Of a stretch of DNA of 11,891 bases, positions 2,549 to 8,415 are shown piece after piece. The notes under the pieces are model-generated. The model was not told the DNA's origin. It worked only from the letters and a program-made list of their open reading frames with translations, and did not search any database. The position numbers and the translations under genes are program-made. This DNA is from a virus, in the UHGV virus genome UHGV-1567921; one strand, written 5' to 3'. The number at the start of each line of letters is the position of its first letter. The first letter of the stretch is position 1.

Positions 2549-2578
2549 GTTTTAAAAATCAAGATTTATTAGAGCAAT
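2549..2578 (-). promoter_or_regulatory. Copy (a) of the recurring intergenic element ATTGCTCTAATAA-N-TTTTTAAAAC (read on the minus strand); candidate promoter or regulator site
   Basis: The minus strand reads ATTGCTCTAATAAATCTTGATTTTTAAAAC. It matches copy (c) at 4690..4719 at 28 of 32 positions with identical spacing (TTGCTC, 17 nt, TAAAAC). It lies about 100 nt upstream of the next leftward ORF. Confidence 0.35.
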
Positions 2579-3084
2579 TATTGTTGGTGGAGAAGCGCGT
2601 TTTCATACTCCCTGACCATTAACGTAAGTACGCCGTGACTCCTGAAAACACGCGCCACTTCAATCTTATCTTCCAGCGCGAACGCAATTTTACTTAGACC
2701 AATTTTCTTCAGGAGATCAATCTTTGCTGGACCGTCATTTCTGTCATCGGTGGCAGGACGCATAGATAGCAAAGGCTCAGCCCCGTTTGTTACGTACTTC
2801 CGCAGCCAGGCTCGTGTTTTATCCCTTGCGATCTCACAGCGCCCGGTTACAAACCAGACCGTGTAAACGTTAAATAACTGGCGCACCATATCAATAACCG
2901 GAGTGATGGGAGTATCGGTGTCACAGGCGAGATTAAACTCGTTCCAGTCCTTTGTTAATGCACCTTTACCTGGTGGCGGAAGCAAATGCAGTCTGTCTTC
3001 AGTTGCCTCTGATATTGTTCCATCAATATCAACTATGACGATATACGGACGTTCCTGGTGTGCGTGTTTATTGAAAATACTCAA
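2578..3084 (-). CDS. HAD-superfamily phosphatase (168 aa), possibly polynucleotide 3'-phosphatase or nucleotidase-like
   Basis: HAD motif I IVIVDIDGTISE (DxDGT), motif II WFVTGR, and a later K and an ED pair consistent with motifs III/IV. TTG start at 3082-3084 preceded by GAGGAGGG. Stop TAA at 2578-2580. Confidence 0.8.
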   Translation of the reverse strand: MSIFNKHAHQERPYIVIVDIDGTISEATEDRLHLLPPPGKGALTKDWNEFNLACDTDTPITPVIDMVRQLFNVYTVWFVTGRCEIARDKTRAWLRKYVTNGAEPLLSMRPATDDRNDGPAKIDLLKKIGLSKIAFALEDKIEVARVFRSHGVLTLMVREYENALLHQQ

Positions 3085-3103
3085 ATGCCCTCCTCATTGG
3101 ACG

Positions 3104-3137
3104 AAAAAAATGCTGGTGGGCGCACTCCACCAGCATT
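3104..3137 (-). terminator. Rho-independent terminator for leftward transcription
   Basis: AATGCTGGTGG (3109-3119), loop GCGCACT, CCACCAGCATT (3127-3137): perfect 11-bp stem. On the minus strand it is followed by a run of 7 T (plus-strand A-tract 3104-3110). It sits between the 420-aa gene stop (3157) and the HAD gene start. Confidence 0.6.
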
Positions 3138-3156
3138 AAAAGTGACACTGTAACTG

Positions 3157-4419
3157 TCAGCGAACGTAAATAGTGCCGCCGTTCTCTTTTTCCCATGCAT
3201 CGCTACGTGCATAGCAAACATCGAGAAGTCTTCTTGCCGCTGTTTCCTCTAAACCCAATTCGACAACCAACTGCTCATGACGGCGGGTAACCACATCAAA
3301 CAGGGTATGCAACCCTTTAGTTGCCAGATCATCAATGAATTCCGGTTCGAACGGCAGCTCTGCATCTGCCAACATAACCTCTTGCGCCCACTCAACTCGA
3401 CGGACCAATTCCGGGCGGCGGCTTTCCATCTCTTTACAGATCAATTCATGGAAGAACTCTACCCAACCTTCCGGCTGGAACTCGCGGAAAATGGCCAGCG
3501 GCTGGAAGTTTGGCATCAACCATTCGTTGATTCGGATATCAATGGCATAGCCCATGTCGCAGCAGAACTGATAAGCAAAGTCCAGCTTAGAAACGATATA
3601 AGGACGCTCGTTATTGAACTCTTTAGGCGATGAGATCCCATAAGCCAGGAGGCGCGGGAAGAAGGAGATTTGCCCTAACGTCGGATGAAGTTTGCTTGCA
3701 GGGAAACGGCGCTCAGTAATGCCATACATTTCCTTCTTGAGCGTCGCAAATTTGGCATTCTCATTAACCAGCGCGGTAACCTCTGCTTTTTTATTAGCAA
3801 ATGCCACGCGCGCTTCGCTTGCATCTTTAATAGTTTTTTTGAGCTGTTGGTTAAGGTCGGCGACCTGCTTACGCAGTTCCTGTCGCTCGCTTTTAGCTTT
3901 GTTATAGCGTTTCTCAAGGTTAAAAGGATCAAGTTTCATGATCTCTTTATATTGAGATTTTAGCGTTGAAATCTGTGAGTTCCGCAGTTCAACCATCGCG
4001 GTCATTTCATTGAGTTTTGTTTCCAGCTCAATGCTTATACGTTCGGCATTATCAGCACGCTGGTTGGCGTCATGCGTCGCATCGTCGATCGCGTCCTGTT
4101 GCTGGCGTTTCAAATGTTCAATTTGTAGCTGAAGCTCTTCAATTTCTTTACCCTTCAGACCGAGATCCAACTGCATATTTTCAGCTGCATCTACCAGGGA
4201 GTTATGGCTATCAGCTTCTGCGTTATAAACATCAATAAGCTGTGCGTGAAGCATCTCCGCTGACTGAACCGCATTATCAAAAAAACGCGCTGTGAGGTCA
4301 TCACAACTAACGCGGCGTTGCGCGGCCCGGATGTTCTGGATAATGGCCGGGATACCGGCATTCAGGACGTCAGGGATAGATACATTTTCGATTGATTGGT
4401 TTTGTGCTGAAGTGCTCAT
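3157..4419 (-). CDS. Hypothetical protein, 420 aa: long central coiled coil plus C-terminal globular domain, function unknown
   Basis: Long ORF filling the interval with consistent operon packing. The central ~170 residues are heptad-like and rich in E/K/Q/L (EIEELQLQIEHLKRQQQD... KQVADLNQQLKKTIKD...). The C-terminal ~180 aa is aromatic-rich with no motif I recognise. ATG at 4417-4419; stop TGA at 3157-3159. Confidence 0.85.
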   Translation of the reverse strand: MSTSAQNQSIENVSIPDVLNAGIPAIIQNIRAAQRRVSCDDLTARFFDNAVQSAEMLHAQLIDVYNAEADSHNSLVDAAENMQLDLGLKGKEIEELQLQIEHLKRQQQDAIDDATHDANQRADNAERISIELETKLNEMTAMVELRNSQISTLKSQYKEIMKLDPFNLEKRYNKAKSERQELRKQVADLNQQLKKTIKDASEARVAFANKKAEVTALVNENAKFATLKKEMYGITERRFPASKLHPTLGQISFFPRLLAYGISSPKEFNNERPYIVSKLDFAYQFCCDMGYAIDIRINEWLMPNFQPLAIFREFQPEGWVEFFHELICKEMESRRPELVRRVEWAQEVMLADAELPFEPEFIDDLATKGLHTLFDVVTRRHEQLVVELGLEETAARRLLDVCYARSDAWEKENGGTIYVR

Positions 4420-4420
4420 T

Positions 4421-7279: not shown

Positions 7280-7376
7280 TCATTTCAGCGATTACAGGGT
7301 CCACTACAGCATCTGTTTCCTGTTCATTACGCGGCATGACCGATGCCAGCGACTCATAATTAACCTTGGATGACAC
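7221..7376 (-). CDS. Hypothetical small acidic protein (about 51 aa from GTG 7374-7376)
   Basis: GTG at 7374-7376 with GGGAGA 6 nt upstream. Acidic product (...NEQETDAVVDPVIAEMNARLEAEFAAENEHTTQGD). Stop TAG at 7221-7223. It overlaps the 5' region of paralog 2 as drawn, so one of the two models is wrong at this end. Confidence 0.3.
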   Translation of the reverse strand: MSSKVNYESLASVMPRNEQETDAVVDPVIAEMNARLEAEFAAENEHTTQGD

Positions 7377-7442
7377 GATTATTCTCCCGATGTTAAAGTG
7401 CACTACCACAAAGAGCGTACATGCACTAATTAATTTATTATT

Positions 7443-8021
7443 TTAAGCAGCATGCAACCACTTATCGCCGTTCAATACATGCTCAATAGCCTCACCCTTT
7501 TTAAGACTTATGTATTCCAGGATGGCGGTAATCGCTTGTTCTGCACCGTACGCAAGAACGACGTAGTAACCTTCCTCTCTAAGCCTGCGCATCCAGGCGA
7601 TCTGCTCTTTCGTCGGGGCTTTACCATTTGGTTCTTTAAGCTCAATTCGCATGCCGTGATAAATACCGCATGCTTTATCGAGACTCATGTCCGGATAACC
7701 TTTTTTCTGCCCTTCAGCCTTCATTTTCCCGGCGGTTGCTTTTGAACGTTTCCCTCCGTTAGGCGTTGCATGCAACAGCTCATAGATGTCAGGGTGCTTG
7801 CGTTCGAAGTAATCAAAAATGAAAACCTGCTCGAAGTGCTCGCAATTTCCGTCGCGCAGGTCTGGGTTCTTTGCAAGTGCTGCAAGTGCCTTCGCATGTG
7901 GAGAAACTTCTTTTACCGGCGCAAGCGATAAGAATGGATCCTTTTTGGTTTTTGGCCTGGACCGCCCCTTATTTCGACGCTCACTAAAAGCCTGAAACTC
8001 TTCCTCAGTAAAGCGCAACAT
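7443..8021 (-). CDS. VRR-NUC domain nuclease (PD-(D/E)xK superfamily), 192 aa
   Basis: LHATPNGG...KGYPDMSL...GMRIELKEPNGKAPTKEQIAWMRRLREEGYYVVLAYG matches the VRR-NUC layout (PD ... ExK followed by a conserved Q and a hydrophobic C-terminal strand). ATG at 8019-8021 lies 2 nt after the upstream stop. Confidence 0.85.
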   Translation of the reverse strand: MLRFTEEEFQAFSERRNKGRSRPKTKKDPFLSLAPVKEVSPHAKALAALAKNPDLRDGNCEHFEQVFIFDYFERKHPDIYELLHATPNGGKRSKATAGKMKAEGQKKGYPDMSLDKACGIYHGMRIELKEPNGKAPTKEQIAWMRRLREEGYYVVLAYGAEQAITAILEYISLKKGEAIEHVLNGDKWLHAA

Positions 8022-8023
8022 AA

Positions 8024-8269
8024 TCAGTCAAATCCTGCCGGTCGCATGCCATATTTACGCTGTTTTGCGGCCTGCTCTTCCCTGTGCCATTGCGCACATT
8101 CAGCGTCACAATAAATGCCTGATTCAATCGATTCATTGCAGTAACGACACTTCCCTGTAAATACCTGGCTCACGACCTGTGCCTGCTTTCTGATGTTATC
8201 GATGGCCATGTCTTTGAGAGCTTCTAACTGATTCATGCTCAGCTCTGCATCATCAACACGTTCTGCCAA
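8024..8269 (-). CDS. Small Cys4 zinc-ribbon protein (81 aa), first gene of the leftward operon
   Basis: CRYC-x9-CDAEC cysteine pattern. TTG start at 8267-8269 with GAGGAAA and a 5-nt spacer; alternative in-frame ATG at 8234-8236 has a poorer SD. Confidence 0.65.
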   Translation of the reverse strand: MAERVDDAELSMNQLEALKDMAIDNIRKQAQVVSQVFTGKCRYCNESIESGIYCDAECAQWHREEQAAKQRKYGMRPAGFD

Positions 8270-8415
8270 TTTTGTTTCCTCGTGAAGAACCTACTTAAGG
8301 GCAGAATGATACATTTCACAATCAAAATTGCACTAATAATTTTCTTTTATTGAGTTAAATATTCAACAAATGACTAGCGGTAGAATCACCATCATCTATT
8401 TCTGGCAGGCTGACT
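8270..8415. promoter_or_regulatory. AT-rich divergent intergenic control region between the leftward and rightward operons
   Basis: 146 bp with no ORF, flanked by divergent gene starts. Candidate leftward -10 TGTATCAT (TATCAT at 8306-8311, minus strand). Candidate rightward -10 TAGAAT at 8381-8386. Copy (d) of the recurring motif, ATTGCACTAATAA, at 8327-8339. No strong -35 found for either candidate. Confidence 0.4.

Follow-up and report, generated by a model that had tools for sequence, protein, structure and literature searches.

The intergenic element that recurs in the window (the whole stretch of DNA analysed, 11,891 nucleotides) almost certainly corresponds to five dispersed operators of C1, the primary immunity repressor of bacteriophage P1 (Punavirus), as judged from sequence comparison. 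This analysis itself shows that the sites are identical to annotated operators and syntenic with them, statistically enriched, confined to intergenic DNA and conserved in relatives; for C1 binding and repression, the sources are published work and GenBank annotation. The motif is real but ordinary, because all five copies are already known as annotated operators in the P1 and P7 genomes.

Identity of the window and of the repeated sites

The window is bacteriophage P1-like (Punavirus) DNA, a fragment of a phage-plasmid. Positions 1689-11817 are 99.2% identical to positions 75054-85182 of the P1 genome (AF234172; AF234172 locus coordinates equal window coordinates plus 12). The leftmost 1.7 kb differs from P1 and carries Ead/Ea22-like and PAPS-reductase-like genes. 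Illumina adapter contamination was seen at the 3' end of the window. From the open reading frames and the P1 annotation, about 578 of 11,818 bases (4.9%) were tallied as non-coding. The c1 gene lies outside the window, about 9 kb past the P1 end of the matching segment, and C1 is encoded by P1, P7, SJ46, RCS47, JK004 and others. A tblastn search with C1 against Ro157c2YLVW (80.7 kb), the best-matching record, gave no match; C1 showed no Pfam domain, and no PDB relative was found by sequence.

The published consensus of the C1 binding site is an asymmetric 17-mer, ATTGCTCTAATAAATTT, with about 22 dispersed sites per P1 genome (PMC8546580). The operator core is TGCTCTAAT. All five sites of the window match "phage repressor C1" protein_bind features in P1 (AF234172), the five 17-mers being identical in the window and in P1, and P7 (AF503408) likewise annotates all five as C1 operators. 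Mismatches below are counted against ATTGCTCTAATAAATTT.

2562-2578, minus strand: Op88 (OpmgT), ATTGCTCTAATAAATCT, one mismatch; AF234172 protein_bind "OpmgT, former Op88"; Op(hea) in P7.
4654-4670, plus strand: Op86b (OpmgRb), ATTGCTCTAATAAAAAA, three mismatches; AF234172 protein_bind; Op(sht[b]) in P7; identical in four relatives.
4703-4719, minus strand: Op86a (OpmgRa), ATTGCTCTAATAATTCC, three mismatches; AF234172 "controls expression of pmgR and pmgS"; Op(sht[a]) in P7.
7420-7436, plus strand: Op83 (Oppp), CATGCACTAATTAATTT, four mismatches; AF234172 protein_bind; Op(hdm) in P7.
8327-8343, plus strand: Op82 (O26), ATTGCACTAATAATTTT, two mismatches; AF234172 protein_bind; Op(26) in P7, annotated there as "regulates expression of 26, 25 and other genes".

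The exact 13-mer ATTGCWCTAATAA was found at the four places where the earlier note had put it (2566-2578, minus; 4654-4666, plus; 4707-4719, minus; 8327-8339, plus), and the degenerate fifth copy that it had reported is real, with 13 of the 17 positions of Op83 matching the consensus. As had also been claimed, every copy lies in non-coding DNA, which makes up about 5% of the window (5/5 intergenic); the site at 2562-2578 alone reaches into a gene, sharing a single base with the stop codon of pap. Op86b is inverted relative to Op86a and stands downstream of the predicted PpmgR start. Op83 lies just downstream of the predicted PpmgN (-10 at 7449-7454, minus strand), in the opposite orientation, and Op82 is located in the divergent pmgL / gene 26 control region, where it overlaps the predicted P1pmgL and P2pmgL. 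Among the five, Op88 and Op82 alone are linked by GenBank notes to entries deposited earlier (M25414, X98146, X87824), and a literature search with the operator names Op82 to Op99 gave only unrelated papers.

Frequency and conservation of the motif

When the window was searched with the 17-mer, allowing up to three mismatches, the four sites of the 13-mer were recovered against 0.05 expected, and none of 200 shuffles reached four matches (mean 0.05). With a looser search (13-mer, up to two mismatches), four matches were also obtained in 2 of 200 shuffles. A scoring matrix was built from the P1 operators, these five sites included, on which Op83 scored about 19-21 bits; in its second version the five sites scored 21-28 bits and the rest of the window at most 11 bits. 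The motif was also counted over the whole P1 genome, with expectations derived from shuffles and from base composition: there are 18 copies of the 9-mer core TGCWCTAAT, where about 1.5-1.7 would be expected, annotated operators account for 17 of these 18 occurrences, and the exact 13-mer was seen 8 times against 0.008 expected.

In P7 and two further punaviruses, Ro157c2YLVW and 673R5, the sites are found in syntenic positions, and their core is unchanged where the flanks vary. At Op83, four relatives share the core TGCACTAAT without change and differ in the first base and in the flanks. Since the close relatives are 98-99% identical to the window, footprinting among them is weak, and the divergent Cronobacter phage JK004 was used instead. 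This phage is about 74% identical to the window over the gene 26-25-7 DNA, and its C1 is 76% identical. High-scoring copies of the motif were found in intergenic gaps of JK004, oriented with the downstream gene; no motif was found upstream of its gene 26 homologue.

Promoters at the sites and alternative readings

The following features lie at or beside the sites, the hairpin being read from the sequence and the promoters taken from AF234172.

2549-2577, minus strand: P2pmgT, predicted sigma-70 promoter (AF234172 regulatory features), -35 TTGCTC at 2577-2572, 17-nt spacer, -10 TAAAAC at 2554-2549.
4667-4694, between Op86b and Op86a: hairpin AAAACGTGATG-AGTGTA-CATCACGTTTT.
4718-4713 (-35 TTGCTC) and 4695-4690 (-10 TAAAAC), minus strand: PpmgR, predicted sigma-70 promoter (AF234172 annotation).
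8368-8386: late promoters LP26/LPpmgL (AF234172), beside Op82 and separate from it, 25 nt to its right.

The -35 hexamer of P2pmgT, which reads leftwards to a 28-aa ORF and pmgT, falls within Op88, and that of PpmgR falls within Op86a. The likeness over 30 nt between the copies at 2566 and 4707 (TTGCTC, 17 nt, TAAAAC) is real, and the promoter-like hexamers noticed in these two copies are those of the annotated predicted promoters P2pmgT and PpmgR. A generic sigma-70 consensus scan of the window did not call the promoters beside the five operators. The distance of 80-100 nt that had been given between motif and first ORF was approximately right: we measured 64 nt from the end of Op86a to the pmgR ATG (4639), 73 nt from the end of Op82 to the gene 26 ATG (8416) and 83 nt from the end of Op88 to the ATG (2479) of the 28-aa ORF, the annotated pmgT ATG (2383) lying 179 nt away. 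This 28-aa ORF (2479..2393), downstream of Op88, is absent from the annotation. Transcript or essentiality data on the pmg units were sought; the pmg genes are unmentioned in the P1vir RNA-seq paper, and the CRISPRi survey gives essentiality alone, with nothing on operators.

The mechanism preferred in the earlier note was that the motif is a phage-specific promoter element, served by an alternative sigma factor or a phage activator. In Op88 and Op86a the motif is indeed followed by TAAAAC at a fixed 17-nt spacing and is oriented with the downstream genes, and its hexamers are weak sigma-70 matches that escaped the consensus scan. However, Op86b and Op83 are oriented against the neighbouring genes, and Op82 is without a comparable -10 at the 17-nt spacing. 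Across P1, the annotated sites take varied positions relative to promoters (upstream, on the -35, on the -10 or past it), which fits a repressor site and not a polymerase recognition element. Moreover, the Lpa-dependent late promoters of P1 carry a different signal and are annotated separately (e.g. 8368-8386), and the literature has C1 as a repressor binding this sequence (PMC8546580). In view of how the sites are oriented and placed, and of the different late-promoter signal, this reading was rejected as very unlikely.

The copies could also be arms of terminator or REP-like palindromes, acting as RNA-level or structural signals, as Op86a and Op86b form an inverted repeat around the hairpin and the minus-strand read-through RNA (4645-4725) folds at -29.3 kcal/mol, z = -9.5. 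Yet this is the one inverted pair: Op88, Op83 and Op82 are single, without a strong partner at the spacing of bivalent operators, the site lacks symmetry, and in P1 the copies mostly stand alone. An RNA-level role at Op86 could coexist with an operator role, but it cannot explain the whole family. The statistics and the single inverted pair led us to reject this reading, which we hold to be extremely unlikely. As to a chance recurrence of a functionless A+T-rich word, the intergenic DNA here is A+T-rich, and the loose 13-mer search gave four matches in a few shuffles; against this stand the 17-mer search, which no shuffle matched, the excess of the exact 13-mer in P1, the invariance of the core across relatives with variable flanks, and the recurrence of the motif in a phage only about 74% identical in the aligning region. 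Chance is excluded by the statistics, and the probability left to it is practically nil.

Proposed repression by C1 and known systems

The reading of the five sites as C1 operators agrees with the other option of the earlier note, a binding site for a phage regulator, which was right according to the annotation and to the literature (PMC8546580). Its overall interpretation stood as regards the regulator site and the promoter-like hexamers and failed as regards the activator or alternative sigma factor, C1 being a repressor that silences these units in the lysogen. Roles have been described for C1, Lxc and Coi, with C1 binding to this sequence and repressing lytic functions (PMC8546580). Since predicted sigma-70 -35 hexamers are found inside operators, C1 would repress promoters of the host RNA polymerase. 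In this mechanism, C1 sites would overlap or abut the host sigma-70 promoters of early and lytic units, which in the window would be pmgT with the genes that follow it, pmgR-pmgS-pap, pmgN-ppp-pmgQ and the divergent pmgL / gene 26 region; as these promoters are predicted ones, the assignment of each to an operator is putative. In the plasmid prophage, occupancy by C1, strengthened by the co-repressor Lxc, would block RNA polymerase, at Op88 and Op86a on the -35 hexamer that is itself part of the operator, and at Op86b and Op83 just downstream of the predicted start. After induction, or in an infection, C1 would be removed by its antirepressors, Coi and Ant1/2, and the unmodified host polymerase could then transcribe the units. 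Op86b and Op83, the two of the five copies that face against neighbouring genes, lie downstream of predicted starts, an orientation and position that fit an operator and not a promoter element.

The hairpin at 4667-4694 looks like the terminator of the upstream pmgN-pmgQ unit, and read-through RNA at Op86 could form a 26-bp stem. The hairpin is bracketed by Op86a and Op86b and its right arm overlaps the -10 of PpmgR, so that C1 acting from both sides could couple termination of the upstream unit to repression of the following one. At Op83, which is annotated as monovalent, we found a weak second half-site, CTTAAAATAATAAATTA, on the minus strand (7431-7447). Op83 could be a cryptic bivalent operator, because the 6-bp overlap of the half-sites is as in the bivalent operators Op72ab and Op99ab and the new half-site outscores the annotated weak half-site Oc1b. 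Bivalency is nevertheless held at low probability, as no TGC core is present in the partner, whose 5' part is different in 673R5. Together, a cryptic bivalent Op83 and an Op86 pair coupling termination to repression would be an undescribed local detail, which we regard as doubtful.

The P1 C1 operator network was already known in the late 1980s, and the discovery value is small, the operators being already annotated in reference genomes. The result is useful rather as a calibration point: a reader of raw sequence picked up the true signal of a dispersed regulon, together with its degenerate member and the overlapping promoter hexamers, with the class right (regulator binding site) and the sign of regulation wrong.

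The C1 operators of P1 and P7 have the same sequence, genome positions and orientation as the five sites of the window. The sites themselves show no difference, whereas the left 1.7 kb of the contig differs from P1. The P1/P7 set comprises Op2, Op21, Op51, Op53, Op55, Op68, Op72ab, Op82, Op83, Op86ab, Op88, Op94 and Op99a-e, and the P1 genome annotation renames the operators (Oref ... Oc1e). The system resembles lambda CI at OR and OL in that the repressor of a prophage covers the sigma-70 promoters of lytic genes. The lambda operators, however, are palindromes that bind dimers and lie in clusters at two loci, whereas the C1 sites are 17-mers without symmetry, dispersed over about 20 places of the genome; in the older literature, C1 binds as a monomer. 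The late promoters of P1 are likewise a phage-specific signal recurring in intergenic DNA upstream of transcription units, but they depend on Lpa and consist of a 9-bp -22 box and a TATAAT-like -10, without a -35. The motif differs in sequence from this -22 box and -10 and does not qualify as a late promoter.

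The recurring motif and its annotation as C1 operators

Exact search of the window with ATTGCWCTAATAA returned the four copies described in the earlier note, at 2566-2578 (minus strand), 4654-4666 (plus), 4707-4719 (minus) and 8327-8339 (plus). A looser 13-mer search, tolerating up to 2 mismatches, had a chance expectation of 0.65 matches. The 17-mer ATTGCTCTAATAAATTT with up to 3 mismatches recovered the identical four sites against 0.05 expected, and four matches were reached in none of 200 shuffles. A degenerate fifth copy had also been claimed, and it was recovered at 7420-7436 (plus strand) as CATGCACTAATTAATTT. 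The five sites scored 18.6-26.3 bits on a first weight matrix and 21.3-27.7 bits on a second version, this matrix being trained on operators of bacteriophage P1 that include these five; no other window position exceeded about 11 bits. All five fall, as the earlier note had it, within non-coding DNA, which by a tally from the ORF list and the P1 annotation makes up about 578 of 11,818 bases (4.9%); the 2562-2578 site shares a single base with the pap stop codon.

Megablast against a phage collection aligned window positions 1689-11817 with P1 (AF234172 75054-85182, reverse strand) at 99.2% identity; identity of the window to the other punaviruses P7, SJ46, RCS47 and vB_EcoM-Ro157c2YLVW is 98-99%. 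According to the P1 annotation, the minus strand carries pmgT, pap, pmgS, pmgR, pmgQ, ppp, pmgP, pmgO, pmgN, pmgM and pmgL, and the plus strand genes 26, 25, 7, 24 and the start of 6. In the feature table of AF234172, where the locus coordinate equals the window coordinate + 12, all five sites bear a protein_bind feature "phage repressor C1", C1 being the primary immunity repressor of P1:

2562-2578, minus strand: OpmgT (former Op88); P7 Op(hea)
4654-4670, plus strand: OpmgRb (former Op86b); P7 Op(sht[b])
4703-4719, minus strand: OpmgRa (former Op86a), "controls expression of pmgR and pmgS"; P7 Op(sht[a])
7420-7436, plus strand: Oppp (former Op83); P7 Op(hdm)
8327-8343, plus strand: O26 (former Op82); P7 Op(26)

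The window 17-mers do not differ from those of P1 by a single base, and the GenBank notes in AF234172 connect Op88 and Op82 with previously deposited entries, M25414 and X98146 among them. The recurring motif is a genuine, non-random and functional feature, already known and annotated as C1 operators.

The ends of the window are of other origin. Positions 1-1688 are non-P1 and replace pmgU, pmgV and the 3' end of pmgT. This mosaic segment, partly common to P7 and Ro157c2YLVW, contains an Ead/Ea22-like gene (72-776, minus strand) and a PAPS-reductase-domain gene (773-1651, minus strand) with about 90% identity to genes from the ninC region of Stx-converting lambdoid phages. P1 homology ends at 11817-11818. 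The final 73 bases (11819-11891) come from assembly or trimming rather than from a phage: they are an Illumina TruSeq indexed adapter (GATCGGAAGAGCACACGTCTGAACTCCAGTCAC, index TGACCA, ATCTCGTATGCCGTCTTCTGCTTG) and, after it, A10, and are to be regarded as an artefact.

Operators and repressor in P1 and its relatives

As the earlier note had proposed, the motif was counted genome-wide, here on the complete P1 record (94.8 kb). The 9-mer core TGCWCTAAT occurred 18 times against 1.5-1.7 expected, 17 of the 18 being annotated C1 operators, and the exact 13-mer 8 times against 0.008. In the feature tables, almost every annotated operator is intergenic or touches just the last codons of a gene, the exception being Oc1c, inside coi. 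The sole core match unannotated as a C1 operator is GATGCTCTAATAATCTC (AF234172 9459-9475, plus strand, locus L002, core 9461-9469), in the mod region. The strand given for the Omat operator feature (2628-2645) appears to be wrong as well, since the consensus-like CATGCACTAATAAATAT is on the plus strand.

All five sites occupy syntenic positions in P1, P7, Ro157c2YLVW and 673R5, phages too closely related for strong footprinting; the operator core is invariant in these four, with variation in the adjoining outside bases and at the first base of Op83. The Cronobacter phage JK004 is more distant (about 74% identity over genes 26-25-7). It has a C1 homologue of 76% identity and motif copies ATTGCTCTAATAATTTA, ATTGCTCTAATAATTAT and ATTGCTCTAATAAATTA (25.7-27.2 bits), every one in an intergenic gap and in the orientation of the downstream gene. 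Since JK004 has both, repressor and operator word co-travel across the lineage.

The c1 gene of P1 (locus L004 1635-2483, minus strand; 283 aa) is not contained in the window. C1 matched no Pfam family at E-values up to 0.01 and no PDB chain by sequence at E-values up to 1, and its recognition of the asymmetric 17-mer is without structural explanation among solved structures. Ro157c2YLVW (NC_050153 / MH160767, 80.7 kb), the record nearest the window, gave no tblastn match to C1 and retains all five operators; an incomplete record, or a derivative phage that lacks C1, may account for this.

Operator anatomy and mode of action

C1 binds as a monomer, and Op88 was reportedly characterised biochemically in 1989. 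In Op88 and Op86a, bases 2-7 (TTGCTC) are annotated as the -35 of the predicted sigma-70 promoters P2pmgT and PpmgR, and TAAAAC, 17 nt further on, as their -10. The 30-nt unit that the earlier note saw shared by the copies at 2566 and 4707 is present in the sequence and is exactly these -35/-10 pairs. With the -35 within the operator, C1 bound to Op88 or Op86a would exclude RNA polymerase. Op82 lies in the divergent control region of pmgL and gene 26, overlapping predicted promoters P1pmgL and P2pmgL, 25 nt left of the back-to-back late promoters LPpmgL/LP26 (8368-8386). Op83 is directly downstream of predicted PpmgN in opposite orientation. Since the promoters beside these operators are GenBank predictions, none of them called by a generic consensus scan, we infer the operator-promoter pairings.

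Downstream of the inferred PpmgR start, at a distance of about 14-30 nt, comes Op86b in inverted orientation. A hairpin AAAACGTGATG-AGTGTA-CATCACGTTTT separates Op86a from Op86b. It resembles a terminator for the pmgN-pmgQ unit upstream, and its right arm reaches into the PpmgR -10; RNA folding of minus-strand 4645-4725, both operator arms included, gave -29.3 kcal/mol (z = -9.5). The two operators form an inverted pair around this hairpin, and in read-through RNA from pmgQ the composite stem would be about 26 bp long.

The gap between Op88/P2pmgT and pmgT contains a 28-codon ORF (2393-2479, minus strand; MNTAFKIIMAAIYFWLFSITFGGIVAHG) that has a good ribosome-binding site, AGGAG. Its product is hydrophobic, intact in P1, P7 and Ro157c2YLVW, with one conservative change in 673R5; it is annotated in none of these four records. 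The ORF could encode a small membrane protein and stand first in the unit that Op88 controls. A note in the P1 record gives this stretch about 98% identity with DNA located downstream of hsdR on plasmid R124/3. A GC-rich hairpin (ACATGCCGCGCCTTGCGGCATGT then TTTTTATTTT, 2507-2539) was called as a plus-strand intrinsic terminator, an orientation antisense to every neighbouring gene; read on the minus strand, it has no U-run and belongs to the 5' leader of the transcript under Op88 control. It may be a leader stem-loop or a terminator for antisense transcription.

A weak second half-site, CTTAAAATAATAAATTA (7431-7447, minus strand), is on the strand opposite to Op83 and shares 6 bp with it, the geometry of the bivalent P1 operators Op72ab and Op99ab. 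It outscores Oc1b, itself annotated as a weak half-site, and no other 'monovalent' P1 operator has as good a partner; the half-site is without the TGC core, and 673R5 has a different sequence in its 5' part.

The earlier note had proposed a promoter element or a regulator's binding site, with an activator or alternative sigma factor as possible mechanism. It was right about the class, a phage-regulator site overlapping promoters. The copies vary in position and orientation as operators would be expected to, and as an element recognised by polymerase itself would not. The mechanism that it suggested is incorrect: C1 acts as a repressor, and host sigma-70 holoenzyme reads the promoters. The activator-dependent late promoters of P1, which depend on Lpa, have a different signature (-22/-10) from the C1 operator motif.
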